Virus record (IMG/VR): IMGVR_UViG_644736359_000006
Source: a virus
Taxonomy: Duplodnaviria; Heunggongvirae; Uroviricota; Caudoviricetes
Direction: 5' to 3' (one strand)
Length of the DNA: 31,135 nt
Below the pieces are notes generated by a model. The model did no database searches. It was not told the origin of the DNA and worked only from the letters and a program-made list of their open reading frames with translations. The translations under genes and the position numbers were made by a program. Shown one piece after another: positions 2,070 to 22,979 of the stretch (the first letter of the stretch is position 1; each line of letters begins with the position of its first letter).

Positions 2070-2303
2070 ATGAAATCAAAAGACACCCTAAAGTGGTTCC
2101 CTGCGCAGCTTCCTGAAGTAAGAATTATCCTAGGGGATGCTGTAGTGGAAGTAGCAAAACAGGGAAGACCTATCAATACCAGAACATTGCTTGATTACAT
2201 TGAAGGAAACATAAAGAAAAAATCATGGCTGGATAACAAAGAATTATTACAAACAGCGATATCAGTTCTTAAAGACAACCAAAATTTAAATGGTAAAATG
2301 TAA
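2070..2303 (+). CDS. ydfK: YdfK/YnaE-family small cold-shock-associated protein
   Basis: 77-aa ORF MKSKDTLKWFPAQLPEVRIILGDAVVEVAKQGRP...; AAGGAA Shine-Dalgarno about 8 nt upstream of ATG at 2070. Confidence 0.8.
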   Translation: MKSKDTLKWFPAQLPEVRIILGDAVVEVAKQGRPINTRTLLDYIEGNIKKKSWLDNKELLQTAISVLKDNQNLNGKM

Positions 2304-2618
2304 TATAATTAACTTACTTTTTTATCATTTTCCACTTTAACAACATTTTGCTCCACTTTTCCACGACCAAACAACTTGAAATCTGGTTAAAATAACACGC
2401 AACACTATTCTTCTTCCTTGAGTCCGCCTGGAACTCGAAAAACAAACCGAGTTAAAGCCATTTTTCACAAAATCGATTTTGGGTCTCACCAAAATTACGG
2501 GGTTGCATACGCATTCGTTTATTTTCGAACGTGTACATACAAATATGCACAAAAATAATCAAAATTATTTTCTGAGATGCATTATGATATGAACACCAAT
2601 TTCGTATAGAGTCTCACT

Positions 2619-3209
2619 ATGTCTCGAATTTTTGCTTACTGTCGGATATCAACGCTGGATCAGACCACCGAAAATCAACGCCGGGAAATCGAAAGTGCAG
2701 GTTTTAAAATCAAACCTCAGCAAATAATCGAAGAACACATTAGCGGCTCAGCAGCAACCAGTGAGCGTCCTGGTTTTAACCGGTTGCTTGCTCGCCTGAA
2801 ATGTGGTGATCAATTGATTGTGACAAAATTGGATCGCCTTGGTTGTAATGCAATGGATATCAGGAAAACAGTGGAACAACTGACCGAAACAGGTATCAGA
2901 GTGCATTGCTTAGCATTGGGGGGCATTGACCTGACCAGTCCAACAGGAAAAATGATGATGCAAGTAATTTCAGCAGTCGCTGAATTTGAACGAGACCTTT
3001 TACTTGAACGCACTCATTCCGGGATAGTAAGAGCCCGGGGCGCAGGGAAACGTTTTGGTCGACCACCTGTGTTAAATGAAGAACAGAAACAGGTGGTATT
3101 CGAACGGATTAAGTCAGGTGTAAGTATAAGTGCCATTGCCCGGGAATTCAAAACCTCGCGGCAAACCATTTTAAGAGCCAAAGCAAAACTTCAGACACCT
3201 GACATATAA
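2619..3209 (+). CDS. pinQ: Serine recombinase / DNA invertase Pin
   Basis: 196-aa [23 protein letters not shown]... with resolvase-type catalytic N-domain and C-terminal HTH; sits between ydfK and the tail-fibre genes as in Qin. Confidence 0.85.
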
Positions 3210-3436
3210 AAAATAATCTCGGTGTGAGATGCTTTACGTCTTCCAAGCCCCCTTCCTTGCCGTAAATGGAAAGATACATCTAATTATAGAATTTATATGT
3301 TTTACCCTACGGCAGTGCTGGCCATTCAATATCCTGTGCAGTTGACGTATCAACACGGTTCAGCAACACCCGATACTTTTTCCTGGCTTCCAGCAACGGG
3401 GTTTCTTCCTCCGTTGCATATACAGCTCACCTTTTT

Positions 3437-3730
3437 TCACCCACGATTAACCAACAGCCAGATCAGCAGACACGCCACCACCGGCACAGCAAAATCCATC
3501 AGGCTTGCCACATCCCAAACACGCGGATCAAAACCGCCCCACCACGGCATGTTAATCCGCTTGCCATGCCCGAACATTTCAATCCAGCGATATTCTGCCT
3601 GGGTGTGTTCACGCGCAATGAAGAACGTACAACCAGCTATCGCCCCATAAGCCCAGTTTCCGGTAAAAAGACCAACCAGTGTCTGCGCAGCCACAGCACA
3701 AAGCGCATGAAGAAAAGGTGTTATATCCAT
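3437..3730 (-). CDS. Hypothetical small membrane protein
   Basis: 97-aa ORF with two hydrophobic segments; AGGAGG Shine-Dalgarno directly upstream of ATG at 3730; family not recognised. Confidence 0.45.
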   Translation of the reverse strand: MDITPFLHALCAVAAQTLVGLFTGNWAYGAIAGCTFFIAREHTQAEYRWIEMFGHGKRINMPWWGGFDPRVWDVASLMDFAVPVVACLLIWLLVNRG

Positions 3731-4454: not shown

Positions 4455-4736
4455 TCACATCCAGCCACGAAGTTGATGCTCAACAACAACCGCGTATTTA
4501 TCGAATATTGACGATTTTTTTGCATCATTAATGATGCGCACGTTTACAAAATATCCGTCTTCCTTAACACATACCGGCTCGCCATCTTCAGTAAGTTCTC
4601 CGGTTTCTTTGTACACGTTACCTATCACGTCAATAAGAATATCATCCTGCATCGACTCGTCATCATAATAGCCAGCACTCTTCATAAAGGCCGAAAAGTC
4701 GGCCTTGTCTGTGAATTTGATAATTAAATCTCGCAT
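4455..4736 (-). CDS. Hypothetical protein translationally coupled to stf
   Basis: 93-aa ORF whose ATG overlaps the stf stop (TAATG); acidic, no recognisable motif. Confidence 0.4.
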   Translation of the reverse strand: MRDLIIKFTDKADFSAFMKSAGYYDDESMQDDILIDVIGNVYKETGELTEDGEPVCVKEDGYFVNVRIINDAKKSSIFDKYAVVVEHQLRGWM

Positions 4737-7114
4737 TATATTATCTCTCCCATTTGCGCATCGGTTAATTCTTTATGCCATATTCTAAAATTCCTGATAT
4801 AACCAAATAAATGACGTAAGCCGGCTGTAGTCTGGCCTCCAATCCTTATACCTGTAGCACCACTAACACTCTTCCACGTTGTTGATGCTGGTGTTGATAA
4901 AACCCCATTGCAGCCAGCCTGAAACTTGCCATCGCTTTTTATTCTATATACAGCGATAATCTTTCTTGGGTAATTTCCAGGTGGAAATGATATTGGATTA
5001 CCAAATTGAACATATGGAGTTCCTACACTACCTGCTGTATTTCTGAATGCAAAAACAAAAGCGTCGTCTTTTGTTTTAAATCCTGTTATATCATAAATTC
5101 TAGGCGCGGAATTTGGTGCTATAGACCAATTTTTATTCACTTCAACCATGCAGGTTAAAGGTTTGCTGGCCATGTTATTTTTACAAGGCAATGTAACAAT
5201 ATCGCTTGCTCGCGTTGATGCAACTGTATCGGAAATGATAAAAGATGATGCGCATGAGCCGCCTTCAAATTGTGGTGTCGTAACATCCAAATATTCCCCG
5301 CCCAAATAAGTTCCAGGTGAAACAGGTGGAGCAATTTGGATCTGAGAGCCAACCATATTATCAATAGCTTCAGATTGATATGTAACCTCGAAATAAATCC
5401 ATCCATTAGATTCTTTCTCCGCTCGGGCGGTTATTCTTGCAGCCCCTCCTCCCGTTTTCCTAATGGACATATCTGTTATATTAAGATATGCATCTGCCAG
5501 ATAAAAATATGCGGACCCGTCATATCTTTCAAATCTTATACGACATTGTATATTAGCACTATCGCTTTTTACACGACATGATGTTGTAACATACTTTTCA
5601 GTTCCAGTAACATCGACACCTCTTCCTCCTGAAACCGCAGCGATATTCATTGTCGTATTTGTCCCAATTTTTTCGTCCTTTATTTGAAACCGCCCATAAG
5701 TAAAGCCAAACTCATCAACACCACTTTCTGTTATAGTTACACTTGTTGTAGCTCCCCACTTAGATGGCGTAAGTGAATTAAGATGATAGTTGGTTCTTTG
5801 TCCTTCAATCAGCAAACCTTCTCGTTCAAATCGCGGTTCGTCAACTTCAGCAACGGTTAATACTCCTGATTTATTAATGTATGTTGCACCTGATGCGCGT
5901 TTGAAGCTAACAACCTTATCGGATGGCATTTTAATAACATCATCACCTACAGTTATTTGCTTATAACCAGGCGAAAAGCCAGCAAGCATATCCAGTGAAT
6001 CGTTAAACGGTATCCACACATCGGGAAGCGGCTGCAAAACTTGTTTATACGGCTCCGCAGCCTGGCTTGCATACTCTCTGGCTGCGTCTTCACTTGCTTT
6101 TGCAGCCGTCTGGCTTGCAGCGGATGCTTTCGCCGAGTTAGCCGCCGCAGTCTCGCTCGCCTTTGCGTTGGTTTCACTGGTTTTTGCAGCTTTTTGACTG
6201 TTGGCTGATGCAGTGGCAGAAGAAGCCGCCGCACTTGCAGAACCAGCTGCGGCACTCTCGCTTTGGGCCGCTGCATCCTGACTGTTTTTCGCCGCAGTTT
6301 CGCTGGCTTTGGCATTCGTTTCGCTGGTCTTCGCTGCCGTCTGGCTGGACTTTGCGTTAGTTTCGCTCGTCTTCGCTGCTTTCTGGCTGTTAGCTGCAGC
6401 AGTTGCTGATCCAGCTGCTGAAGTCGCAGAACCGGCTGCCGCACTCTCGCTTTCGGCTGCTGCAGCCTGACTGCTTTTCGCCGCAGTTTCACTGGTTTTG
6501 GCATTCGTTTCGCTTGTTTTCGCTGCCGCCTGGCTGGACTTTGCGTTGGTTTCGCTCGTCTTTGCTGCTGTCTCGCTATTTTTCGCGTTGTTTTCTGATT
6601 TTTTAGCTGCTGTCGCGGAGTTTGCCGATGCAGTCTGCGAGGCCGCTGCCGCCTGTGCGCTGTTAGCTGCATGCGTTTCTGAGGTTTTCGCCGCGTTCTT
6701 CGATGATGCCGCTGCTGTTTCTGATTTCTTTGCTGCCGCTGCGCTCTGAGAGGCGGCTTCAGCGTTGCGTGCTGCTTCTTCCACCATTGCCTCAAAACGA
6801 CGCAATGCCTCCGGCATGACATCATCTTCCGTCATGGCACCGAGAAAATCATTCAGCGTACCAGGTCTGGAACCTTCATAGACGGTAATGGTTCCGGCAT
6901 GTGAAGGCGGAAAACCTTCAACCAGCAGGGTGACGCTGTACTGGCCATACTCGACATCCATGCTGTAACGCCCGGCTTCATCCGGATTTTCAGAGGCTAC
7001 CGTGTTCACCAGTACCGTGGTGCTGTTACGCTTTGCCTTCAGTTGAATAGTGCAGTTCTGTATTGGTTTTCCCGCACCATCTTTCAGCACACCTGAGATT
7101 TTTACTGCTGCCAT
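4736..7114 (-). CDS. stf: Side tail fibre protein, lambda Stf-like N-terminus, Ala/Ser/Thr-rich repeat shaft, LamG/ConA-like C-terminal domain
   Basis: N-terminus MAAVKISGVLKDGAGKPIQNCTIQLKA... matches lambda Stf; GGAG RBS before ATG 7114 (ORF track starts at upstream GTG 7120); C-terminal ...LFGYIRNFRIWHKELTDAQMGEII resembles the LamG jelly-roll end motif. Confidence 0.85.
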   Translation of the reverse strand: MAAVKISGVLKDGAGKPIQNCTIQLKAKRNSTTVLVNTVASENPDEAGRYSMDVEYGQYSVTLLVEGFPPSHAGTITVYEGSRPGTLNDFLGAMTEDDVMPEALRRFEAMVEEAARNAEAASQSAAAAKKSETAAASSKNAAKTSETHAANSAQAAAASQTASANSATAAKKSENNAKNSETAAKTSETNAKSSQAAAKTSETNAKTSETAAKSSQAAAAESESAAAGSATSAAGSATAAANSQKAAKTSETNAKSSQTAAKTSETNAKASETAAKNSQDAAAQSESAAAGSASAAASSATASANSQKAAKTSETNAKASETAAANSAKASAASQTAAKASEDAAREYASQAAEPYKQVLQPLPDVWIPFNDSLDMLAGFSPGYKQITVGDDVIKMPSDKVVSFKRASGATYINKSGVLTVAEVDEPRFEREGLLIEGQRTNYHLNSLTPSKWGATTSVTITESGVDEFGFTYGRFQIKDEKIGTNTTMNIAAVSGGRGVDVTGTEKYVTTSCRVKSDSANIQCRIRFERYDGSAYFYLADAYLNITDMSIRKTGGGAARITARAEKESNGWIYFEVTYQSEAIDNMVGSQIQIAPPVSPGTYLGGEYLDVTTPQFEGGSCASSFIISDTVASTRASDIVTLPCKNNMASKPLTCMVEVNKNWSIAPNSAPRIYDITGFKTKDDAFVFAFRNTAGSVGTPYVQFGNPISFPPGNYPRKIIAVYRIKSDGKFQAGCNGVLSTPASTTWKSVSGATGIRIGGQTTAGLRHLFGYIRNFRIWHKELTDAQMGEII
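6120..6600. repeat. Tandem 189-bp (63-codon) repeats inside stf
   Basis: Unit beginning gcactctcgcttt at 6252 recurs at 6441 (period 189 bp, ~90% identity) with a degenerate copy upstream; encodes repeated ...SESAAAGSA...ANSQKAAKTSETNAK... blocks; explains the shadow ORFs on both strands. Confidence 0.7.
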
Positions 7115-7125
7115 ATCCACTCCAC

Positions 7126-7151
7126 AAAAAAGCCCGCCTGAACCGGCGGGC
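7126..7151 (-). terminator. Rho-independent terminator after lom
   Basis: Stem gcccgcc/ggcgggc (7132-7138, 7145-7151) followed on the minus strand by a run of six U. Confidence 0.55.
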
Positions 7152-7178
7152 TGTCATAACACTGTGTTACCTGGCTAA

Positions 7179-7778
7179 TCAGAATTTATAACCGACACCC
7201 ACGATGAAACCGTCAGTGCGCCAGTCACCACTGCCGGAACCTTCATAAGCAAGGTCAATGGCCACGGATTCGGTCGGGTTAAACTGCACGCCAGCCCCCC
7301 ACGCCAGAGACGTGTTGCTGTGGCGACCGTCATCACTTCCGGTCAGCACATCGTGCGTTTTCCCCTTGTTGTCAGTTACGCGGAGATAATCCCCGGAGAA
7401 GGTCGACACACGGCTGTAAGCCATACCCGCCATCGCATACGCGCTGAACCATTCATTCACGCGCACAGACGGCCCCGCCATCACGCTGAACCAGCGGTTA
7501 CGCACGGAATCTTCATGCCAGCGGGTATCGCTGTAATGCGTTTTTTGCTCATCTTTGGCATTGGCATAACTGAATGACGTCACCAGCCCCAGCGTGTCCG
7601 TAAACTCATAACGGTATTTCACGTTAATCCCGTTCAGATCATCGCTGCCGGGAACGTTCGTCGAGGCATGAAGATACCCCGCGCTCAGCGTGGACTGATG
7701 TTCAGACGCCCATGCAGGCGCACCGGATACGGCCAGACAAATGGCTACGGACAAAATGGCGGCATAAAGTTTACGCAT
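7179..7778 (-). CDS. lom: Lom/Ail/OmpX-family outer-membrane protein
   Basis: 199-aa ORF with signal peptide, alternating beta-strand pattern and C-terminal ...GVGYKF; located between J and stf as in lambda; GAGAGG RBS. Confidence 0.8.
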   Translation of the reverse strand: MRKLYAAILSVAICLAVSGAPAWASEHQSTLSAGYLHASTNVPGSDDLNGINVKYRYEFTDTLGLVTSFSYANAKDEQKTHYSDTRWHEDSVRNRWFSVMAGPSVRVNEWFSAYAMAGMAYSRVSTFSGDYLRVTDNKGKTHDVLTGSDDGRHSNTSLAWGAGVQFNPTESVAIDLAYEGSGSGDWRTDGFIVGVGYKF

Positions 7779-7802
7779 AATTACCTCTCGCTTTTCTGCA
7801 AT

Positions 7803-7826
7803 AAAAAAGGCGTCATTTCTGACGCC
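7803..7826 (-). terminator. Rho-independent terminator after J fragment
   Basis: Stem ggcgtca/tgacgcc with tttc loop, followed on the minus strand by UUUUUU. Confidence 0.55.
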
Positions 7827-7844
7827 CGTTATGGGTTATAAAAT

Positions 7845-9148
7845 TCAGCTAATCATGATGCCTGCAGTGGCTTTCTTCATCACCACAACCAGCAAATCGC
7901 TGATACTTGCTGTGGGATACCAGCCATTTACCAGCCATGCCGATACAGAAAATTCCAGTGTCATTACACCACTGCCTGCAGGCATATCAATAACACCCGT
8001 ATATATCAGCGTATTATCCAGAGCCGTTCGGTTATAAATTTCAGCACCGTTTTTTCGTACTATCAGACGGCATGAGGAGTAGATATCAGTATGATCTTGC
8101 TCATGTTTAGCGCCACTGAATGCCACCGCCGGAATAACAATTTGCCGGTCAAACGGCTGATCGTCATAAACCCTGACGGTAATGGTCCCTGATGGCCACC
8201 GCTCCGGTGCACGGGAGTCCCGGGGGAAAGCTTTGCCCACTGTTTTAACGAGATCGCCTTCAATCTGGTTCGCGGACAGTTTTCCCAGAACCCGGCAGTT
8301 CTCGTTAATCGTGACGTTGTTGAGCGTCCCGGAGTTCGCATTCACGTTACCGCTAATATCGGCATTTTTCGCCGTCAGCCGCCCGTCCGGTGTCAGGGAA
8401 AATGCCGGAGGATTACCGCCGCTGGTAATGGTGGGAGCCGTCAGATATTTCAGGAACACTTCGTTCATGAATATCTGATCGCCCTGACCAACAAACATCG
8501 GCTTTGTGTTGCCATTCGCAGGATTAATCATCGCAATCCTGTCCGCCGCCAGCAGCACCTGACTCTGCATACCGTCAGGGGTATTCTCAATACCGGCACC
8601 AATACCCGCGATATAAAGGCGTCCGTCCTGCATCTGCTGCAGCTTCACAGCCCACATGCTGTTCAGGTTATTATTTGTATCAACCTGAACCTTCTGTATC
8701 TGCTGGATTGCCGCACTCTGGTCTTCCAGTTTCTTATTGACGGTCTGCGTGATTTCATTACTGACATCCGTGATGGACGTTCTGATTTCCGCCAGGTCAG
8801 GCGCAAGCTGACCGTTATCAATCTGCGTCCACAACTCCTGAGCCAGATGGGTTTTCCCTATCTCTCCTTTGAAAAAATTCAGATAGCCGGATGCATCATC
8901 ACTCGGCTGGCCAACAGCCTCCACGAATGCCGATTTGCCAACGGTGTTCACACTGCGGATGTAAAAATAATAATCATGGCCCGGTTTGATATTGATACTG
9001 GCGGCTATCCAGTACAGCGCCGTGCCAAGATAGCGTGCTGTGGTTTCAACCTGCCTGATATCCGCAATCCGCTTTTCCGAGAACCAGAACTCAAACTGTA
9101 CCGTCGGATCATAAACCGCAAGATGCGGCGTGGCGGTTATCTGAAAAT
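7845..9148 (-). pseudogene. Host-specificity protein J (tail tip), C-terminal ~434 codons only, 5' end removed by IS3
   Basis: Long ORF runs without a native start straight into the IS3 left end at 9149; position upstream of lom matches lambda J. Confidence 0.7.
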
Positions 9149-9204
9149 TGATCTTACCCAGCAATAGTGGACACGCGGCTAAGTGAGTAAACTCTCAGTC
9201 AGAG

Positions 9205-9513
9205 GTGACTCACATGACAAAAACAGTATCAACCAGTAAAAAACCCCGTAAACAGCATTCGCCTGAATTTCGCAGTGAAGCCCTGAAGCTTGCTGAACGC
9301 ATCGGTGTTACTGCCGCAGCCCGTGAACTCAGCCTGTATGAATCACAGCTCTACAACTGGCGCAGTAAACAGCAAAATCAGCAGACGTCTTCTGAACGTG
9401 AACTGGAGATGTCTACCGAGATTGCACGTCTCAAACGCCAGCTGGCAGAACGGGATGAAGAGCTGGCTATCCTCCAAAAGGCCGCGACATACTTCGCGAA
9501 GCGCCTGAAATGA
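9205..9513 (+). CDS. insE: IS3 OrfA (InsE), HTH transposase component
   Basis: ORF ...[31 protein letters not shown]... with C-terminal leucine-zipper-like region; first ATG at 9205, conventional start a few codons later. Confidence 0.85.
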
Positions 9514-10376
9514 AGTATGTCTTTATTGAAAAACATCAGGCTGAGTTCAGCATCAAAGCAATGTGCCGCGTGCTCCGGGTGGCCCGCAGCGGCTGGTATA
9601 CGTGGTGTCAGCGGCGGACAAGGATAAGCACGCGTCAGCAGTTCCGCCAACACTGCGACAGCGTTGTCCTCGCGGCTTTTACCCGGTCAAAACAGCGTTA
9701 CGGTGCCCCACGCCTGACGGATGAACTGCGTGCTCAGGGTTACCCCTTTAACGTAAAAACCGTGGCGGCAAGCCTGCGCCGTCAGGGACTGAGGGCAAAG
9801 GCCTCCCGGAAGTTCAGCCCGGTCAGCTACCGCGCACACGGCCTGCCTGTGTCAGAAAATCTGTTGGAGCAGGATTTTTACGCCAGTGGCCCGAACCAGA
9901 AGTGGGCAGGAGACATCACGTACTTACGTACAGATGAAGGCTGGCTGTATCTGGCAGTGGTCATTGACCTGTGGTCACGTGCCGTTATTGGCTGGTCAAT
10001 GTCGCCACGCATGACGGCGCAACTGGCCTGCGATGCCCTGCAGATGGCGCTGTGGCGGCGTAAGAGGCCCCGGAACGTTATCGTTCACACGGACCGTGGA
10101 GGCCAGTACTGTTCAGCAGATTATCAGGCGCAACTGAAGCGGCATAATCTGCGTGGAAGTATGAGCGCAAAAGGTTGCTGCTACGATAATGCCTGCGTGG
10201 AAAGCTTCTTTCATTCGCTGAAAGTGGAATGTATCCATGGAGAACACTTTATCAGCCGGGAAATAATGCGGGCAACGGTGTTTAATTATATCGAATGTGA
10301 TTACAATCGGTGGCGGCGGCACAGTTGGTGTGGCGGCCTCAGTCCGGAACAATTTGAAAACAAGAACCTCGCTTAG
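9510..10376 (+). CDS. insF: IS3 OrfB (InsF), DDE transposase catalytic domain, in -1 frame relative to orfA
   Basis: 288-aa ORF overlapping the orfA stop (ATGA) in the -1 frame; DDE-type core ...HTDRGGQY... Confidence 0.85.
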
Positions 10377-10529
10377 GCCTGTGTCCATATTACGTGGGTA
10401 GGATCAATTCACCTAAATACGAGGCATTGCTGTAGTTGAATTGCATTGCTGTATTAGCCTGACAGTGACAGAATACGATATTGACTCTGTCACTTGTGAA
10501 ATGGTCAGAATGGTTAGCAGTTATGGTGA

Positions 10530-10736
10530 TCAGTCAACCACCAGGGAATAATCCTTCGTATTCTTATCGTGCTTTACTAACGCGGCCTCAATTGCCCTGA
10601 ATGCTTCCAGAGACACTTGATGTTCTATACATGCAATTACAACATCCGGGTAACCCATCGAAATGGTGCTATTAAGCATAGTTTTTACACGAACCTGCTC
10701 CTGGGAGGGGGCATCAGTGTATTGATCTTTATGCAT
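10530..10736 (-). CDS. Hypothetical protein
   Basis: 68-aa ORF only; no motif recognised. Confidence 0.3.
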
Positions 10737-11031
10737 TTTGTCGCTCCATGCGTTTGCTCTTCACTTACGGCTAAAAATATAACGTCAAATCACTCAGCAT
10801 GAAAGAGTGAAAGATTCAGCGCGTTTCCCTTACATAATCTGTCGTTTGTATTCTCTTCAGGCATACCGGAAAGACTAGGTATTGTCACACAACCAATACC
10901 ATCGACAATCGAGATTTATACCTATTCGGTAATGTTTAAATATAACAAAACCCCGTAAAAACGAGGTTTATGGGTAATTTGTATTGTTGAATAGCATCTG
11001 ATGAGAAATTGATGCTAATACTATAAACAGA

Positions 11032-11205
11032 CTAGATTAAATCAATCTTGATATCATAGCTTTCAAGACCAGTCATTTTTTCCCGTGCAGTAAACTGGAT
11101 ACTGGTAACTTCTTTCCCGGTCTTTTTCTTAAGCTCAATGATTTTTTTTGTTATATATTCAGAAATATCTGCTTCTGTTTTTGTTTTTAACTCTTCAATG
11201 TTCAT
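11032..11205 (-). CDS. gnsB: GnsA/GnsB-family small protein
   Basis: 57-aa product MNIEELKTKTEADISEYITKKIIELKKKTGKEVTSIQFTAREKMTGLESYDIKIDLI; GAGG RBS; start set at the second ATG. Confidence 0.75.
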   Translation of the reverse strand: MNIEELKTKTEADISEYITKKIIELKKKTGKEVTSIQFTAREKMTGLESYDIKIDLI

Positions 11206-11377
11206 CATTTCCTCTTTTAGTCTGTTATGACTTTCCTGGTACACAGTAGTGTCAATTATATGGAGCAAACGTATAAAAGATAAGATGAAACATCGCAATA
11301 ATCAACATACGACGGTCTAAATTTCACACAAACAGATAAAGATGATTATCATTTATTATCAATGCATTAGAATCAAA

Positions 11378-11647
11378 TCAATTCAAGAGTCTCATTGCTG
11401 CTTCCAGAATTTCTTCTGAAGTTACATGTCGATCCGCTGCTACATAAATGACTTTATGATCTCCGGTCAGAGATGGAAACCCTGCAGCCATTACAGTGAG
11501 GTGTGTTGTTTCGCCATTTGGATATTCACGCATGATGGTGTTAACTCCGGTCATCACTGGCACTACCATTGCTGGTTCAGAGTTAAAAAAAACTATTATT
11601 TTTTTCATAATGTTACCGTAATATGTGAGTATCCATCGACTAGACAC
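11378..11647 (-). CDS. Hypothetical protein at the ynfN position
   Basis: ORF only; start codon uncertain (internal MKKIIVFF... possible); no strong RBS. Confidence 0.3.
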   Translation of the reverse strand: MSSRWILTYYGNIMKKIIVFFNSEPAMVVPVMTGVNTIMREYPNGETTHLTVMAAGFPSLTGDHKVIYVAADRHVTSEEILEAAMRLLN

Positions 11648-11652
11648 TAAGC

Positions 11653-11672
11653 AAAAAAGCTCCCGAAGGAGC
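11653..11672 (-). terminator. Candidate rho-independent terminator downstream of cspI
   Basis: Stem gctcc/ggagc with cgaa loop, followed on the minus strand by UUUUUU. Confidence 0.4.
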
Positions 11673-11879
11673 CTTCATTTTCACTTTCTTAAATCTAACG
11701 ACAGACGGCTAACATTTAAGTATTGTGAAATATTATCAAATGTAATCATCATTGATTTACAAAAGATACATTTTGCCCCGAAAGGATTCCTGTCAGAAAC
11801 ATCAAAAGATGATGTTCTATACTGAGAACCATGGCAACACGGGCATCTAAAGTGAATATGGTTTGTAATATTTTCTACC

Positions 11880-12092
11880 TCAAAGTGCCACAACATGAAC
11901 AGCCGCGGGGCCTTTAGGTCCGTTCTCAATACCAAATTCGACTTCCTGATTCTCAGTTAACGTTTTGAAATCGTTGCTCTGAATAGCTGAGAAATGGACA
12001 AACACATCTTTGCTACCATCTTTCGGCGTGATGAAACCAAAACCTTTTTCAGGGTTAAACCATTTCACTAAACCAGTCATTTTGTTAGACAT
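11880..12092 (-). CDS. cspI: CspA-family cold shock protein
   Basis: 70-aa product [38 protein letters not shown]... with RNP1/RNP2 motifs; long AT-rich 5' leader upstream. Confidence 0.85.
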
Positions 12093-12455
12093 CATTATTA
12101 CCTTTTGAAGAAGTTAGCCCTTGGGCAGAATGGTCCGAAAAAAAATATCAGAGAGAAAAACCAACAAGGAAATCTCAAGAGGTACAAATAATAAAATTAT
12201 AACAATGACTGCTTCAGATAATTTTGTAACAAACCAGAACACCATTAACGCATGATTAACCAACCATAGCAAGGATTACTTTTGTAAAGAAAAACACACG
12301 AATGAAACAATAGCTTTATTTATTAATAAAACGTGTCATTCTGTCTAATGACCTTTTATCTTACCCTTAAGATTTCAAGGATTTTGACTCATGGAAGAGT
12401 CCTTTTTATTTAAATTTCACATTCAGCGCTAAAAATAATCCGATTTAATATTAAT

Positions 12456-13483
<1,028 letters not shown>

Positions 13484-13596
13484 GGATATTTATCAGGATT
13501 TATCGGCTTCAAATCCCCGGATATGTTAAATCTTACCTCATCAGTGATGGGCACTGGCGGGAGGAGGATGTCAATCTGATAAACACAGAGGCGACT

Positions 13597-13857
13597 ATGG
13601 ATTACACAAATCTACCAAAACAAACTTTTGCTGATTTAATCGCACTCAGGCAAGCAGTCGTAGCTCTAATCAACTTGTTGCCGGAGAAGGAAAAGGAATT
13701 AGTTAAAGCGCTTCTTAACAGAACTGCCGCCGATTTTTCATCATATCCACTGACAGATGACCTTGCGGACCTTCCTGAATTAATTGCAGCGTCCGCCAAT
13801 AAGCTTACTGAAGAGATTTACCCTCCTCAAAAATCTTCACAAAATTCCTGCGAGTAA
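13597..13857 (+). CDS. Hypothetical protein, opposite strand to the lysis genes
   Basis: 86-aa ORF with GAGG RBS 6 nt upstream of ATG; 3' end overlaps the convergent 183-aa gene; could be a shadow ORF. Confidence 0.3.
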   Translation: MDYTNLPKQTFADLIALRQAVVALINLLPEKEKELVKALLNRTAADFSSYPLTDDLADLPELIAASANKLTEEIYPPQKSSQNSCE

Positions 13858-14356
13858 CTTCAATGCAATAATCGTAAAACGCCGCAAACTGCTCATCGCG
13901 GCGTTTTTTTTCATCTTCAGAAGGAATCAGCACCGACAATTTTTTATTCAGATCAGCGACGCTGCCCTCCAGTTTTTCAATGGGCGATTCAATATCATCT
14001 TTTTCTGACCGCAATGCCGTCGGTGGCGTCTTCAGAGAACCAGTAATTCTTCCCGGTAGCTTTCCTTTGTAGGTTATCCACACATTCTGCGCCTCTAAAA
14101 TTATGGGGCGCTTTTCCGGCGACTGCTCATCCCCTTCACATAACCCGGCAGCAACATCCAGGAAGACCTGTCTGATGCTCCTTCTGGCTGCTGCCTCATA
14201 AAACTCCAGCGCAGCTCCTTCAACACGGTCCATGGCGACATCCAGGCCAAAAATTTCACCGTCAAAGCGTTCTTTGTCCTGTAAGGCTACAGTTACCGTA
14301 ACTTTATTCTCAAAATTACGGACTCCTTTCACAACCAGTTCATAGTCTTGAGTCAT
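13805..14356 (-). CDS. Uncharacterised protein between holin and endolysin (ydfR position)
   Basis: 183-aa acidic ORF; GAGGAGAG RBS; starts 5 nt after the holin stop; no TM segment or signal peptide. Confidence 0.5.
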   Translation of the reverse strand: MTQDYELVVKGVRNFENKVTVTVALQDKERFDGEIFGLDVAMDRVEGAALEFYEAAARRSIRQVFLDVAAGLCEGDEQSPEKRPIILEAQNVWITYKGKLPGRITGSLKTPPTALRSEKDDIESPIEKLEGSVADLNKKLSVLIPSEDEKKRRDEQFAAFYDYCIEVTRRNFVKIFEEGKSLQ

Positions 14357-14360
14357 TGGA

Positions 14361-14576
14361 TTACTCTCCTCTCGCAGCCTTACGCCTGTCTTCTTTAATC
14401 TTGAAATAAAGATTTGTCAGATACGTCAGCATGCCAAATACCAGACTACCCAATACACCTATTGCCGCCCACTGTGAGGGCGTGACTTTATCGAGCAACT
14501 GTAAAAACCAGTAGCCAGCACTGCCTGCAGAGGTGCTGTAGGCGATGCCCGTTGTTAACTTATCCATGGATTTCAT
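14361..14576 (-). CDS. essQ: Class II pinholin, phage 21 S-like
   Basis: 71-aa product [71 protein letters not shown] with dual-start motif MKSM; GGAGGTGA RBS. Confidence 0.85.
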
Positions 14577-14666
14577 AGCCTCACCTCCGCAGATAACGGA
14601 TGGTGTACACGGTTTGGTTCGAAGAAGGAAAGAAGTTACATTAGCGTAAGGCCCGAACATCTATTC

Positions 14667-14697
14667 AAAAAGAAAAACGCCAGCAATTATTCTGGCG
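14667..14697 (-). terminator. Rho-independent terminator between AraC-family gene and holin
   Basis: Stem cgccag/ctggcg with 8-nt loop, followed on the minus strand by UUUUUCUUUUU. Confidence 0.55.
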
Positions 14698-14766
14698 TAG
14701 CTAAAAATATCGTATAATCTTACACTTCAAAAAATAACTTTATAAAATGCCATCACATCATATCTT

Positions 14767-15489
14767 CTAAGAAAATCTTGATAAATATTGGTGCGGAGGC
14801 ACACCAAAATATCCTCTAAAAACACTTACAAAATATGATGCATTGTCATACCCGCATATTCCCGCCACCTTGCCGACAGTATGGTTACTGTAGATCAATA
14901 ATCTTTGCGCCATCATCATTCGTTCTTCAAGAATTAATTTACTAAACGATAACCCTTCGTCTTTTAATTTTCTTTTTAACAAACTCTCGCTCATATATAA
15001 TCTTGAAGATATATCACAAAGTCTCCATGACGCTGAGATATCCGAGTGAATAATAGCCTTAACTTTACAACCTAAGCTATTAAGACTTCCGAACAAAAAA
15101 CTTTGCACTATTTTCTCTGAAGATAAGACAGCAAGACATGCAAGTGATATTTGATTTCTAACTACATCCACGGTTTTGCTATCACAATTCAAGCATGCAA
15201 CCAAGTTCTTTAACAATGAAAAATCTTCACATTCTACTATCAAGTATGACGGATAAAACCTTCTTACAGAAAAAGGTGAGAGTGTGTAGTTTTTAAAGAA
15301 ATCATTAACTGTTTTCTCCTCAACATCTACGATCATTAGATGATCTGTATTTGACGAAAAAAGATCTTTTAAATTGTATTCAATGAGGACAGCATTTCCT
15401 TTTTTAAACAAAATATCTTCTTTACCAATTCGGACACCAAACGAGTTCAACACCAAAATGATAGAACATATGTATGGCATATTATCCAC
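14767..15489 (-). CDS. AraC/XylS-family transcriptional regulator, AppY/Rns-like
   Basis: 240-aa ORF with C-terminal AraC-type HTH (...GKVAGICGYDNASYFVSVFRGYFGVPPHQY); AT-rich coding sequence suggests foreign origin. Confidence 0.75.
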   Translation of the reverse strand: MDNMPYICSIILVLNSFGVRIGKEDILFKKGNAVLIEYNLKDLFSSNTDHLMIVDVEEKTVNDFFKNYTLSPFSVRRFYPSYLIVECEDFSLLKNLVACLNCDSKTVDVVRNQISLACLAVLSSEKIVQSFLFGSLNSLGCKVKAIIHSDISASWRLCDISSRLYMSESLLKRKLKDEGLSFSKLILEERMMMAQRLLIYSNHTVGKVAGICGYDNASYFVSVFRGYFGVPPHQYLSRFS

Positions 15490-16758
15490 CTGATATCATT
15501 GGGGTTACACCAGGTAAGTATAGGTGGAAAATCAATATTCGCCAGTTCAACAATAAGGAAAATCTCATTGCATCACAACTATAAAACCATGTGTTTAACT
15601 CACAAAAAACAAATCATTAAACTAATCTGTTATATTATAATAGCTGCGTGCAATAATAATATTATATGCTCTTAATATTCACTTGAAATATCTTCATATA
15701 AAAACAGATTGAATAAAATCTTTTGGGGCTGGTATGTTTACCAACATTAAATTGCATCTCAATGTTTTCTTTAGCGTGAACAGGATTTTTATAAAAACTG
15801 ACACTATGAGCATCATAGCGTAGTTTTTACGATTGTAAATATCCTGCATACAGGAACTCATCACTTTCAGATGATATCGCATACAGTTAATTCACCATCA
15901 GTCTTAGAGCCAGTTCTTCCGGATAGGGATCGAAGTAATTCTGTGTAAGCAAGTAATCATTAGGATACTCACCCAGATAATGCTTCAGCAGAGTCAACGG
16001 CGCAAGAAGAGGCAATGTGCCAAAGCGATAGTTAAGTATAACCTCGCTCAACTCTTTACGCTGGCGTGTGCTTAAGTAATTACTAAAATACCCCTGTATA
16101 TGCATCAGCACATTCGTGTGATTTTTACGTGATGCTGGTTTTCTGAGAATCGCCATCAGATTATCACGATACACCTCAAAGTATGATTCAAGGTCCGCCC
16201 ACTCGTGTATTGCAGCCACAAATGGTCCCATATCTTTATAGCCTGCCTGGCTATGCGCCAACAACTGAAGCTTATAACGACTATGAAAAGCTAATAACTC
16301 TCTTCTTGATAATTTCTCCTTGTAAAGGTGATTGAGCTCATCCAAAGCAAAAACTCTTTCAATAAAATTCTCACGAAGCACTGGATCATGTAATCGCCCA
16401 TCCTCTTCAACCGGTAGCCAGGAAAACTTTTCCATCAAAGTGCTCGTAAATAGTCCCACTCCATCTTTACGACCTCGATTACCATTTTCATCATAGACAC
16501 GCACGCGCTCCATGCCACAGCTGGGAGATTTAGCACAAACCACAAACCCCGATACATCCTTTAATTTGTCCATATAAGAACGACTAAACTCTGTCATTCT
16601 CTCTGTCACATCCTCATTCTGGTCGTGGCTGAAACACATCCGTATATTTCCTTGCTTCGAGCGCACAAGTCGTAGAGCAGGACGCGGAACTGGCAGCCCT
16701 ATTGATCTTACCCAGCAATAGTGGACACGCGGCTAAGTGAGTAAACTCTCAGTCAGAG

Positions 16759-17067
16759 GTGACTCACATGACAAAAACAGTATCAACCAGTAAAAAACCC
16801 CGTAAACAGCATTCGCCTGAATTTCGCAGTGAAGCCCTGAAGCTTGCTGAACGCATCGGTGTTACTGCCGCAGCCCGTGAACTCAGCCTGTATGAATCAC
16901 AACTCTACAACTGGCGCAGTAAACAGCAAAATCAGCAGACGTCTTCTGAACGTGAACTGGAGATGTCTACCGAGATTGCACGTCTCAAACGCCAGCTGGC
17001 AGAACGGGATGAAGAGCTGGCTATCCTCCAAAAGGCCGCGACATACTTCGCGAAGCGCCTGAAATGA
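16759..17067 (+). CDS. insE: IS3 OrfA (InsE)
   Basis: Identical product to copy 1 orfA. Confidence 0.85.
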
Positions 17068-17930
17068 AGTATGTCTTTATTGAAAAACATCAGGCTGAGT
17101 TCAGCATCAAAGCAATGTGCCGCGTGCTCCGGGTGGCCCGCAGCGGCTGGTATACGTGGTGTCAGCGGCGGACAAGGATAAGCACGCGTCAGCAGTTCCG
17201 CCAACACTGCGACAGCGTTGTCCTCGCGGCTTTTACCCGGTCAAAACAGCGTTACGGTGCCCCACGCCTGACGGATGAACTGCGTGCTCAGGGTTACCCC
17301 TTTAACGTAAAAACCGTGGCGGCAAGCCTGCGCCGTCAGGGACTGAGGGCAAAGGCCTCCCGGAAGTTCAGCCCGGTCAGCTACCGCGCACACGGCCTGC
17401 CTGTGTCAGAAAATCTGTTGGAGCAGGATTTTTACGCCAGTGGCCCGAACCAGAAGTGGGCAGGAGACATCACGTACTTACGTACAGATGAAGGCTGGCT
17501 GTATCTGGCAGTGGTCATTGACCTGTGGTCACGTGCCGTTATTGGCTGGTCAATGTCGCCACGCATGACGGCGCAACTGGCCTGCGATGCCCTGCAGATG
17601 GCGCTGTGGCGGCGTAAGAGGCCCCGGAACGTTATCGTTCACACGGACCGTGGAGGCCAGTACTGTTCAGCAGATTATCAGGCGCAACTGAAGCGGCATA
17701 ATCTGCGTGGAAGTATGAGCGCAAAAGGTTGCTGCTACGATAATGCCTGCGTGGAAAGCTTCTTTCATTCGCTGAAAGTGGAATGTATCCATGGAGAACA
17801 CTTTATCAGCCGGGAAATAATGCGGGCAACGGTGTTTAATTATATCGAATGTGATTACAATCGGTGGCGGCGGCACAGTTGGTGTGGCGGCCTCAGTCCG
17901 GAACAATTTGAAAACCAGAACCTCGCTTAG
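17064..17930 (+). CDS. insF: IS3 OrfB (InsF)
   Basis: As copy 1 but ...EQFENQNLA instead of ...EQFENKNLA. Confidence 0.85.
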
Positions 17931-18299
17931 GCCTGTGTCCATATTACGTGGGTAGGATCATATAGCCATTTCCGGACATACTGGTCTGAATGTTACCCAT
18001 TCCACTAATTTGTCCATTAAAAAGTCATCTCTTTTGTGACCACCATCAAAACGAACAGCAGAACCGCCCAAACAACCGCTGATCCCAATCACAGGTTTTT
18101 TTATCATTTCCTCCCCCTTGACTAATTCATTAACACATAAACTTTGTAGTGCACGGACTAAATTGCCTTTCTGGCTTCATCACTGACAATTTTTCTGTTA
18201 TTGACTATTCCTAATATAGTAGGAAAGTTCTTTAAGTGATCGGTCGTACTCATCTATCTTTCATACTTACTCTCAACTATCAAAAGTACAGGATTTATT

Positions 18300-18824
18300 A
18301 TGAAGTTATGGCCTGTGTTGACTGGCATTGCACTCTCTTTCACTCTTATAGCATGTAAGGCTCCGACACCACCTAAAGGTGTGCAGCCGATTACAAATTT
18401 TGACGCCAACCGCTACCTCGGAAAATGGTATGAAATAGCTCGCCTCGAGAACTGGTTCGAACGTGGTCTGGAACAGGTCAGCGCTACTTATGAAAAACGG
18501 AACGACGGAGGGATTCGCGTACTTAACCGTGGATACGATCCAACGAAAAACAAATGGAGCGAGAGCGAAGGTAAAGCATACTTTACTGGAGATACTAAAA
18601 CTGCAGCGTTGAAAGTTTCGTTTTTTGGCCCCTTCTATGGTGGCTATAATGTAATCAAACTGGATGATGAGTATAAGTATGCTCTTGTCAGTGGTCCGAA
18701 CAGAGAATACCTATGGATTCTGGCAAGGACCCAAACTATTCCAGATAATGTAAAAGCAGACTATGTGCGTACCGCTCAAAAGTTGGGATTCAATGTCAAT
18801 GAACTATTATGGGTTAAACAATAA
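18300..18824 (+). CDS. blc: Bacterial lipocalin Blc-like outer-membrane lipoprotein
   Basis: 174-aa ORF with lipoprotein signal (LIAC) and lipocalin motifs ...FDANRYLGKWYEIARLE...KVSFFGPFYGGYNVI...; diverged from chromosomal Blc (judged from memory, not aligned). Confidence 0.8.
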   Translation: MKLWPVLTGIALSFTLIACKAPTPPKGVQPITNFDANRYLGKWYEIARLENWFERGLEQVSATYEKRNDGGIRVLNRGYDPTKNKWSESEGKAYFTGDTKTAALKVSFFGPFYGGYNVIKLDDEYKYALVSGPNREYLWILARTQTIPDNVKADYVRTAQKLGFNVNELLWVKQ

Positions 18825-18979
18825 AATCCCCACCCGAAATGATACTTATTAGAAAAAAACCAGCCTTTGGGGAGGCTGGCTAAATCAGGAAATAAGCTGT
18901 TATATGATAATAACTACGTTGCGATTCCAACATTTAAAATGTTAGACTAATGAAAATCAGACAGCAACTTTTCCTTTAA

Positions 18980-19372
18980 TTATTTCGAACAATCAGCATC
19001 CATCTCCAATCGGAGATCCAACACCATCAGCATGCCCTCCACTACGCCCTCAGCTTTCTGGAGCATCCTGCCAACCCAACAATCAGATCGCCCATGCTTA
19101 CGTGCAAGCGCCATAAAAGTCATGCCGCCGACATAATAGTCCACCAATAAATCATGTAAATCGCTGTTGTTTTTTTTCAGGCGAGCCATACATTCACAAA
19201 TGATCATCGCGTCATCGTCACAGCATTGCGGACGAGATCTTACTTTTGAAGGAATTAATCCCTTAAAACCGGCGGCAATGGACGACCAGGTCACATCTTC
19301 ATGATTATTAGCCGCCCATGCCCCCCAACGCTCAAGAACCATCTGAATATCACGCATCAACTTACTCCACAA
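18980..19372 (-). CDS. quuQ: Late-gene antiterminator Q (QuuD/QuuQ family)
   Basis: ORF ...[75 protein letters not shown]...; alternative start at 19357. Confidence 0.7.
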
Positions 19373-20995: not shown

Positions 20996-21607
20996 AGCCT
21001 GCTTCTCCTTGCCTTTCGGCACGTAAGAGGCTAACCTACATGTGTCTAGCATGAAATTGGCCTCAGATTAATGTTAAGCGTCTTGCAGGACGCGTAATGT
21101 TAACTGGGGCTTTTCTCTATCTGCCGTTGGTGTTCATGCCCGAGGCAGATAGCCTCAAGCACCCGCAGCCATTCTACTTAACTACCGTTACCTCTCCAAT
21201 ATGAAATCAATCAGAAAGGTGATCCATAAGAACAATAACAAGACAATAAATTGCCATTACAGCCACAATAGCCAGCGTGCATTTGAGAACCAGCACATAA
21301 ATCTCCTGCTCTTGACGTATACAGGCACTGATAAATATGTGTCTTCGTGCTCGTTACTTCAATACGTAAGCGTCAGTTGCGCGTAATCAAATCAGACAAC
21401 CGACTTTAAACCAGGGACAAACAGCAGGTAAAATAATCAAACGTTATTTTAAGCCATATCATGGCTGCAAGATTTCCTCTAATTTCAACAAGATGAGCAG
21501 GTCATTGCTTGCACTGATGACCTGCTCATTAATCATGATTATTTGAAAATTAAGGTAGGCGTACTATATATAGAAACACTGCTACGCTCCGTTGGCATAA
21601 TATAAAA

Positions 21608-22294
21608 TCATTCCTGGCCTTCTTTACCGTAGTGGAGTTGACCAATTTTGATTAGAGGGCGTCCCTGAGATTTGCGGTGTAGATTGGTATCGCGCAGTGA
21701 ATACACGCAGCCACAATATTCCTGCTGATAGAATTGTTCGCGCTTGCTGATTTCAATCATGCGGGAAGAGCCGCCCTGCTTTCGCCAGTTATAATCCCAG
21801 TACACCATGCCCGGATAATACGCGACGGCTCGCCGTCCACAGTCGTTAACCTGCTGCATATTTTTCCAGCGTGAAATGCCCAGTGAGCTACTGATCACAC
21901 TGAAACCATTTTCAGCGGCATACAGCGCAGTCCGCTCAAAACGCATGTCAAAACACATGGTACAACGGATCCCTCGTTCAGGCTCCCATTCCATTCCTTT
22001 GGCTCGCTCAAACCAGTTGTCTGTGTCGTAATCAGCATCAATAAATGGCACGCCGTGTTGTTTAGCAAAGCGAATATTCTCATCCTTACGAATTAAATAC
22101 TCTTTCTGAGGATGAATGTTCGGGTTGTAGAAAAAGATGGTGTAGTCGATTCCCGAGGCCTGAAGCGCCTCCATCACTTCACCGGAACATGGAGCACAGC
22201 AAGAGTGCAGTAATAGTTTTTTTGCCCCGTTTGGGAGCTCCAATTTGGGGCGTTTGAAATCAGCAACAGTCATAAATGTGTTTATGAGGTTCAT
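21608..22294 (-). CDS. QueH-like (DUF208) epoxyqueuosine reductase homologue
   Basis: Motifs [12 protein letters not shown] near the N-terminus and [10 protein letters not shown] near the C-terminus; start codon uncertain (ATG 22294 or 22273, or GTG 22387), none with a clear RBS. Confidence 0.5.
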
Positions 22295-22326
22295 GAAAAT
22301 AGCAAAAAGTGTAGCATCAGAACGGG

Positions 22327-22560
22327 CTATCGGAAACAGATGTCTAAATCTGGTAATGTCTGCTTTTGATGCAAAGCAGACAACCACGGCAGCGCACGAA
22401 AATCAGCTATAATGTCGGGATTAATAATCGGGTGACGTCCATCACATAGCGAATGTTCCTCTTTCCTGATATCGCTAAATATCGACCATTCGTCATTCTT
22501 ATCGAACCAGAGCATGCGACTGCCACAGCACATGTCGAGAATGGTAGCCGATGTACTCAC
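22327..22560 (-). CDS. Small ORF with DMCCGS motif, possibly 5' part of a frameshift-split gene
   Basis: GTG start overlapping the upstream stop (GTGA) with GAGGTGA RBS; product ...[19 protein letters not shown]...; frame overlaps the QueH-like frame by ~60 nt. Confidence 0.3.
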
Positions 22561-22979
22561 AGCATCACCTCCCGATAATTCCCCTGATAAAACGTCAGAA
22601 CACGCTGCATAACTTCGCTCTTCCGGCACTCGCGACAGATTATGTTTAGACGACTGTCGTAGCGGCGTATTTCTCCATCAGGTAATGACCAGATAAGGTC
22701 CGGATCAACCACAGCAGGTTTCTTCACCTTTGCCCTCGAGAGTTTTTTGCGGGCGTTTTGCCAGTCCTTACGCGCCTGTTCAGACGGGAATAACCCGTAG
22801 CCGGAGTTGTATACATCGCCACTGGCTACCAGCTCTCTGGCAAGAACGCTCATCAGATATCTAGTCGCACCTGTTTTAGCTTCCAGTTGCCGTAACGTCT
22901 CACGACCGCTCTGGCGCACGAGTTCCACCACCTGCCCTTTAATTTTTTCCCGCTCTTCTTGTGTAAAAACTTTTGCCAC
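22557..22979 (-). CDS. Hypothetical protein, possible DNA-binding
   Basis: 140-aa basic ORF with C-terminal ...ICRECRK... cysteine pair; family not recognised. Confidence 0.45.
   Translation of the reverse strand: MAKVFTQEEREKIKGQVVELVRQSGRETLRQLEAKTGATRYLMSVLARELVASGDVYNSGYGLFPSEQARKDWQNARKKLSRAKVKKPAVVDPDLIWSLPDGEIRRYDSRLNIICRECRKSEVMQRVLTFYQGNYREVML

Follow-up and report, generated by a model that had tools for sequence, protein, structure and literature searches.

Simple IS3 insertion into a predicted rudS gene of the Qin prophage in Escherichia coli B

The Qin moron block and its interrupted gene

We analysed a 31,135-nt stretch of DNA from a tailed-virus record (IMG/VR record IMGVR_UViG_644736359_000006), hereafter the window. 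Positions 6100–31000 of the window (24.9 kb) are 100% identical to Escherichia coli B strains ATCC 11303, B-DolR, AS19, and NCTC10537, and annotation identifies the region as the Qin cryptic prophage of E. coli B, located between ydfJ and rspB. Read along its minus strand, the window has the gene order of the live phages 1H12 and IdasGreatGrand: Q, blc (on the opposite strand), rudS, an AraC-like gene, holin, endolysin, and Rz (Table 1). In particular, the AraC-like gene adjoins rudS downstream in the direction of the late operon, while blc is the divergently oriented moron neighbour of rudS. Because the same Q-blc-rudS-AraC-like-holin order is found in live phages, rudS is a prophage moron occupying the slot between Q and the lysis genes.

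Lambdoid phages carry morons in the Q-to-holin slot, an example being stx of Stx phages. The block described here is likewise accessory, AT-rich (30–43% GC, vs 45.5% across the window), and inserted between Q and the lysis genes, with rudS co-oriented with the late genes. It differs from the stx moron in comprising a tRNA-demodification enzyme, a lipocalin, and an AraC-type regulator, and no toxin.

Table 1. Features of the rudS locus in window coordinates, and IS3 insertions of other genomes mapped onto the same coordinates
Feature	Position	Strand	Basis or remarks
IS3 copy 1	9149..10406	+	same orientation as copy 2; adjoins truncated tail-tip gene
AraC-family HTH regulator	14767..15480	-	Pfam HTH_18/HTH_AraC; annotation; same order in phages 1H12 and IdasGreatGrand
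rudS C-terminal fragment	15887..16699	-	codons 50-319 and stop; excision translation, Pfam PF04463 and PF08349, PGAP pseudogene
Left TAT target-site duplication copy	16700..16702		duplicate of codon 49, ATA on minus strand
IS3 copy 2	16703..17960	+	1258 bp; length and inverted repeats, Pfam, PGAP
orfA of IS3 copy 2	16768-17067	+	Pfam HTH_Tnp_1 (PF01527)
AAAAG frameshift motif, IS3 copy 2	17030-17034		motif position
orfB of IS3 copy 2	17064-17930	+	Pfam rve PF00665, rve_2 PF13333, HTH_21 PF13276
rudS N-terminal fragment	17958..18107	-	49 codons (18107..17961) and TGA from IS3; PGAP pseudogene
Right TAT target-site duplication copy	17961..17963		codon 49 (Ile) of rudS N-terminal fragment
Blc-like lipocalin	18300..18824	+	Pfam Lipocalin_2, E=7.5e-43; annotation
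Late antiterminator Q	18980..19357	-	PGAP 'antiterminator Q family protein'; order as in phage 1H12
IS3 insertion, other genome	14480		duplication GCG; holin
IS3 insertion, other genome	15200		duplication ACC; AraC-like gene
IS3 insertion, other genome	15882		duplication TAC; 3 nt past rudS stop
IS3 insertion, other genome	16208		duplication TAT; rudS, DUF1722 part
IS3 insertion, other genome	18328		duplication TTG; blc, IS inverted
IS3 insertion, other genome	18441		duplication CGC; blc
IS3 insertion, other genome	18511		duplication GGA; blc
IS3 insertion, other genome	19287		duplication CAG; Q antiterminator

The rudS gene lies in two pieces on either side of an IS3 element, IS3 copy 2. The N-terminal fragment reads MIKKPVIGISGCLGG...PVCPEMAI, and the C-terminal fragment reads GLPVPRPALRL...SPSCG...MVN followed by a stop codon (15887–15889). 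PGAP annotates both as pseudogenes: the C-terminal fragment of ATCC 11303 as 'YbgA family protein, missing N-terminus' and the N-terminal fragment as '2-thiouracil desulfurase family protein, missing C-terminus'. A preliminary description of the locus had predicted that the two would join in frame into a gene of ~320 aa with DUF523 and DUF1722 domains. In silico excision of 16703–17960 plus one TAT yields the expected stop-free ORF, with an exact length of 319 codons. The translated ORF matches PF04463 at residues 7–149 (E=5.8e-40) and PF08349 (DUF1722) at residues 192–309 (E=9.4e-40), in each case over the full profile. Both domain labels of the preliminary description hold, the first of them under a new name: PF04463, formerly DUF523, has since been assigned a function and is now 2-thiouracil desulfurase/TudS. 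Since a 3-bp duplication preserves the reading frame automatically, the in-frame joining is not independent evidence for the insertion.

RudS, described in 2024, combines a TudS domain with DUF1722 and acts as a [4Fe-4S] desulfidase on tRNA, from which it removes 4-thiouridine (s4U) (PMC11417400). Since the fusion of a TudS domain to DUF1722 defines RudS, the reconstructed protein is assigned to this family, and we identify the interrupted gene, from its predicted product, as rudS of the tRNA 4-thiouridine desulfidase family. Across its full 319 residues, the reconstructed protein shares 91.5% identity with gp66 of Escherichia phage 1H12 (RudS_vir), a protein that has been assayed and lowers tRNA s4U (PMC11417400). 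It is 97% identical to the homologue of phage IdasGreatGrand. Its length equals that of Salmonella LT2 RudS_ST/ORF319, and its Cys12, Cys44, and Cys110 are at the positions listed for the cluster ligands of RudS_vir and RudS_ST (PMC11417400, Table 1). Glu46, Arg55, Ser107, and Ser109 correspond, as assigned from motif offsets, to RudS_KT Glu51, Arg60, Ser111, and Ser113. Mutants of RudS Cys, Glu, Ser, and Arg residues, including those four of RudS_KT, essentially lose activity, while one RudS_TT Cys-to-Ala variant is still active (PMC11417400).

When the B allele is aligned with two intact E. coli alleles and the two phage proteins, the active-site Cys, Glu, Arg, and Ser residues are invariant. 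At position 169 the B allele has Asp; both phages examined and the common E. coli allele have His. Searched against solved structures, the sequence matched only the distant TudS (E=8e-4), a match useful for motif alignment only; CPE and SPSCG can be aligned with the corresponding motifs of TudS crystal structure 6z92.

The gene thus shares with RudS_vir and RudS_ST the two-domain architecture, the 319-aa length, the Cys12/Cys44/Cys110 set, and the CPE and SPSCG motifs, and with RudS_vir an identical genomic slot, Q - blc - rudS - AraC-like - holin; it differs from both in being interrupted and presumably dead. DUF1722 is also found in E. coli K-12 YbgA (b0707), and PGAP calls the intact gene 'YbgA family protein'. 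However, K-12 YbgA is a chromosomal, stand-alone DUF1722 protein without a TudS domain, whereas the gene here encodes a fusion and is prophage-borne. K-12 YbgA has no effect on tRNA s4U (PMC11417400).

The inserted element and the empty site

IS3 copy 2 begins with 5' TGATCTTACCC... and ends with ...GGGTAGGATCA 3'. Its terminal inverted repeats, TGATC...GATCA, pair imperfectly across ~40 nt. The overlap of orfA and orfB is ATGA, at 17064–17067, with orfB in the -1 frame, and PGAP/RefSeq labels the element 'IS3-like element IS3 family transposase, programmed frameshift'. The element is inserted in the orientation opposite to that of rudS.

Copy 2 thus has each of the features that mark the IS3 family: a length of ~1.2–1.3 kb, TG...CA ends, overlapping orfA and orfB, and a 3-bp target duplication together with an empty site. 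It is the same as IS3 of E. coli in length, TG...CA repeats, orfA/orfB organisation, AAAAG -1 frameshift, and 3-bp duplication. It differs by two bases from the commonest IS3 variant, having transposase WP_085947598.1 and not WP_085947771.1, and is 99.8–99.9% identical to other mapped IS3 copies in E. coli genomes. Copy 2 is a canonical IS3, and nothing material sets it apart. IS3-like sequence is matched in 4793 of 5426 genomes.

Both ends of the element are present and are flanked by a perfect TAT duplication, for which the odds of a chance TAT/TAT match are 1/64. The preliminary description had called the insertion clean, which agrees with these features, and its coordinates are exact throughout.

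The decisive evidence for the insertion is a natural empty site. E. coli PK8276 carries an uninterrupted allele that is annotated as an intact CDS and is identical to the reconstructed gene at 960/960 nt. Its junction, ...GGCAGCCCTAT|AGCCATTTCC, contains a single TAT, exactly as a simple transposition predicts. The uninterrupted allele also bears out the earlier proposal that the gene was intact before the insertion, the two fragments together being the intact coding sequence with all catalytic residues conserved. The gene is uninterrupted in 1063 of 5426 complete E. coli genomes, and 1063 of the 1135 rudS-carrying genomes keep it intact.

The preliminary description had further proposed that these features date the insertion as a simple transposition. 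The empty-site allele bears out the simple transposition; the target duplication reveals the mode of insertion and gives no timing. The pseudogene fragments have zero differences from the intact PK8276 allele, implying that no pseudogene decay has occurred since the insertion.

Origin of the insertion and IS3 activity around rudS

A second IS3, copy 1, lies in the same prophage and differs from copy 2 by 2 nt (IS positions 200 and 1214). In the window its flanks are AAT and ATT, with no target duplication, whereas in PK8276 copy 1 is flanked by an ATT/ATT duplication. The duplication in PK8276, compared with the AAT/ATT flanks and truncated tail-tip gene in B, shows an IS-adjacent deletion in B.

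The junctions of copy 2 are shared widely. With the right junction (the IS end and the N-terminal stub) as a 240-nt query, at least 80% of the query is covered in 64 genomes; at least two of the 60 right-junction matches listed have another arrangement, in two pieces. Among the carriers are the entire BL21 family, stocks of E. coli B, ATCC 8739, and isolates from humans, poultry, and seawater. Since the junction is common to ~60 genomes that include wild isolates, the insertion is older than laboratory strain B. The left junction is found in one piece in only seven genomes, indicating that DNA to the left of the insertion was often lost afterwards. Specifically, in a BL21(DE3) derivative a deletion with 2 nt of microhomology extends from window position 6666 to 16733, so that copy 2 lacks its first 31 nt, and IS3 copy 1, the lysis genes, and the C-terminal fragment of rudS are gone.

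We mapped the IS3 copies of twelve other genomes onto window coordinates. Eight further independent IS3 insertions are located in the region, each with its own 3-bp duplication (Table 1). At four additional IS3 ends in the region, a deletion adjoins the element and there is no duplication. Nearly all of the mapped insertions are on the + strand; this apparent orientation bias was rejected as an ascertainment artefact, as the search joins only same-strand pieces.

A same-strand IS3 lies within ~1.6 kb of rudS in 49 of 1135 rudS-carrying genomes, compared with 4 of 1847 genomes for a control segment of 960 nt taken from the replication region of this prophage; the enrichment near rudS looks real, on the basis of one crude control and of genome counts that are phylogenetically non-independent.

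The presence of two nearly identical direct IS3 copies, 7554 bp apart, could be read as a composite transposon spanning 9149–10406 to 16703–17960 with the split gene as cargo. This reading is effectively refuted. The outer flanks, AAT to the left of copy 1 and TAT to the right of copy 2, do not match, and each copy has a target duplication of its own: copy 2 the perfect TAT/TAT duplication, and copy 1 the ATT/ATT duplication seen in PK8276. Moreover, the intervening DNA is native to the prophage: it is collinear, at 99.95% identity, with PK8276, which is without copy 2, and has the normal Qin lysis and moron gene order, found in strains and live phages that have no IS at either site. We rejected the composite transposon on the flank mismatch and on the native DNA between the copies; a composite element would share one target duplication at its outer ends, have none at its inner ends, and enclose DNA foreign to the locus. 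The 'cargo' of the preliminary description therefore holds for rudS as an accessory gene (moron) of the prophage and not as the cargo of a transposon, which the IS3 pair does not form. A different objection concerns common descent: the TAT could be a site-specific IS3 hot spot hit independently in different strains, so that the shared junction would not reflect inheritance. Many independent IS3 insertions lie in the surrounding 5 kb, the second insertion in rudS (strain 58-3) duplicated a TAT too, and BKQ37E has an IS3 end 8 bp from the site. However, the independent insertions examined are all at other positions, with none a second hit at 16700–16702; many carriers match the junction query at 100%, including the diagnostic IS variant base 17916; and most carriers are known pedigree relatives of B and BL21. 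We regard independent hits at this TAT as very unlikely, although less far-fetched than the composite transposon. The shared junction would follow from one ancestral insertion passed down to the E. coli B/BL21 lineage and ~60 sequenced genomes.

The clustering of IS3 near rudS bears on whether the insertion was neutral. Selection for loss of rudS, or of its late operon, would explain repeated IS3 hits, and both the excess over the control segment and the occurrence of insertions in rudS, blc, the AraC-like gene, holin, and Q are in line with it. However, rudS is intact in most module-bearing genomes (1063/1135), and the insertions are scattered over the module genes and intergenic DNA without concentration in rudS. 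The module is AT-rich and dispensable even for live phages, such that target preference or tolerance fits equally well, and the excess itself is subject to the single control segment and the phylogenetic non-independence of the genome counts. Selection is accordingly an improbable explanation of the cluster. We consider it possible, tentatively, that the Q-to-holin moron block (AraC-like - rudS - blc) of Qin-type prophages is a true preferred target region of IS3; possible causes are DNA structure, binding of nucleoid proteins, or short-range hopping from copy 1. If the block is a preferred target, the E. coli B insertion would be one of many recurrent events, and prophage rudS would be unusually prone to loss.

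Predicted consequences and meaning of the insertion

IS3 copy 2 interrupts the conserved CPEMAI|GLPVPRP motif, entering it between Ile49 and Gly50, and separates the elements of the active site. In particular, the 49-aa N-terminal stub retains Cys12, Cys44, and Glu46 and terminates at a TGA made by the last three bases of IS3 (17958–17960), while the C-terminal fragment retains Arg55, Ser107, Ser109, Cys110, and the whole of DUF1722. Missing from the C-terminal fragment are two of the three ligands of the cluster and the start codon, and its translation could begin no earlier than at an internal GTG, at 16666. A translational fusion from the IS into the C-terminal fragment is excluded by an in-frame IS stop 13 codons upstream. 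A search of the IS ends for outward promoter-like sites that could serve the C-terminal fragment or blc found none, the region having 4 consensus sites vs 4.4 expected.

Because the three-Cys cluster site cannot form in either fragment, rudS is, as predicted from these fragments, almost certainly inactivated by the insertion. The case is unlike that of the active RudS_TT variant: there a single Cys is replaced by Ala, whereas here a whole 49-residue segment is separated, and the C-terminal fragment is without an obvious promoter. A polar effect of the IS on the downstream late genes is also plausible, because the IS lies between Q and the lysis genes, facing against late transcription.

We propose that a single IS3 transposed by the copy-out/paste-in route usual for IS3 into codon 49/50 of an intact prophage rudS, where a staggered 3-bp cut would have led to duplication of TAT. 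The insertion splits the gene and would thereby have destroyed it, and loss of RudS activity and late-gene polarity would probably have followed from the disruption. We are highly confident in this explanation as a whole: one simple IS3 transposition into the rudS gene of Qin, inactivating it.

The event itself is a textbook simple IS3 insertion and is already on public record, the RefSeq entries of E. coli B and BL21 showing two pseudogene fragments. When the literature was searched for an account of this particular insertion, the matches mentioned IS3 only in general terms or concerned deletions of Qin in lines derived from REL606; the primary genome papers on E. coli B were not among them. 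New in the present analysis are the naming of the RudS function, the split of the active site, the natural empty-site allele, the rejection of a composite transposon, and the finding that intact rudS is common. The insertion would explain why E. coli B and BL21(DE3) behave as rudS-null hosts; the published RudS assays used BL21(DE3). E. coli has been stated to lack RudS (PMC11417400), and the presence of intact prophage rudS in ~20% of complete E. coli genomes qualifies that statement.

rudS in E. coli genomes

TudS/RudS homologues have been stated to be absent from E. coli in a study that used BL21(DE3) as the assay host (PMC11417400). In contrast to that statement, an uninterrupted, prophage-borne rudS is present in 1063 of 5426 complete E. 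coli genomes. In BL21, the gene survives as a 49-codon stub. Residue 169 of the reconstructed RudS, located in the linker preceding DUF1722, is Asp in E. coli B and in the allele of strain PK8276 (which has the empty site), and is His in the common E. coli allele and in both phage homologues. The prophage that carries rudS also contains, in its early region, a second tRNA-modification-related accessory gene, which encodes the epoxyqueuosine reductase QueH; a 1361-bp segment holding this gene is missing from the BL21 derivative.

Coordinates of features in the window and in compared E. coli loci
Feature	Window	Strand	Other locus
Large tail/spike fibre ORF	4736-7120	minus	
Tandem repeat array within the fibre ORF	6143-6622		
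BL21-lineage deletion	6666-16733		
IS3 copy 1	9149-10406	plus	L001 (PK8276) 2263-3520
Q-to-holin region	14480-19290		
Reconstructed rudS	15887-16702 + 17964-18107	minus	
Segment missing from BL21 derivative	21322-22682		
QueH gene	21608-22273		L003 21709-22374

IS3 insertions from Q to the holin gene

Sites mapped from loci L001 and L004-L013 of other E. coli genomes place at least nine independent IS3 insertions in the Q-to-holin region, including the window's own, each with its own 3-bp duplication, together with four further IS3 ends flanked by deletions. The targets vary by strain and comprise the holin gene, the AraC-like gene, rudS, blc, and Q. IS3 copies are far rarer near a control segment of the same prophage (4 of 1847 genomes) than near rudS (49 of 1135 genomes). 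This clustering may reflect a hot region for IS3 or a simple tolerance of insertions.

Deletions in E. coli B and BL21

The fibre ORF encloses an array with a 21-nt period and with higher-order units of 189 nt that are 81% identical; in the annotation of E. coli B strain ATCC 11303 by the NCBI pipeline PGAP, the ORF is divided among several partial pseudogenes labelled "phage tail protein". The deletion of ~10.07 kb in the BL21 lineage, defined in a BL21(DE3) derivative (L002), shows 2-nt microhomology and removes part of the fibre gene, lom, the lysis cassette, the AraC-like gene, IS3 copy 1, and the C-terminal fragment of rudS. It extends 31 nt into IS3 copy 2, which is left without its left end. 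The left copy 2 junction is absent from most genomes having the right junction.

IS3 copy 1 in E. coli B is flanked by AAT/ATT, with no target duplication, and adjoins a 5′-truncated tail-tip gene, whereas in PK8276 it is flanked by ATT/ATT and lies beside DUF1441/terminase genes. Because flanks and neighbours differ in this way, it is concluded that the head and tail genes of the E. coli B prophage have been lost through an IS3-adjacent deletion.
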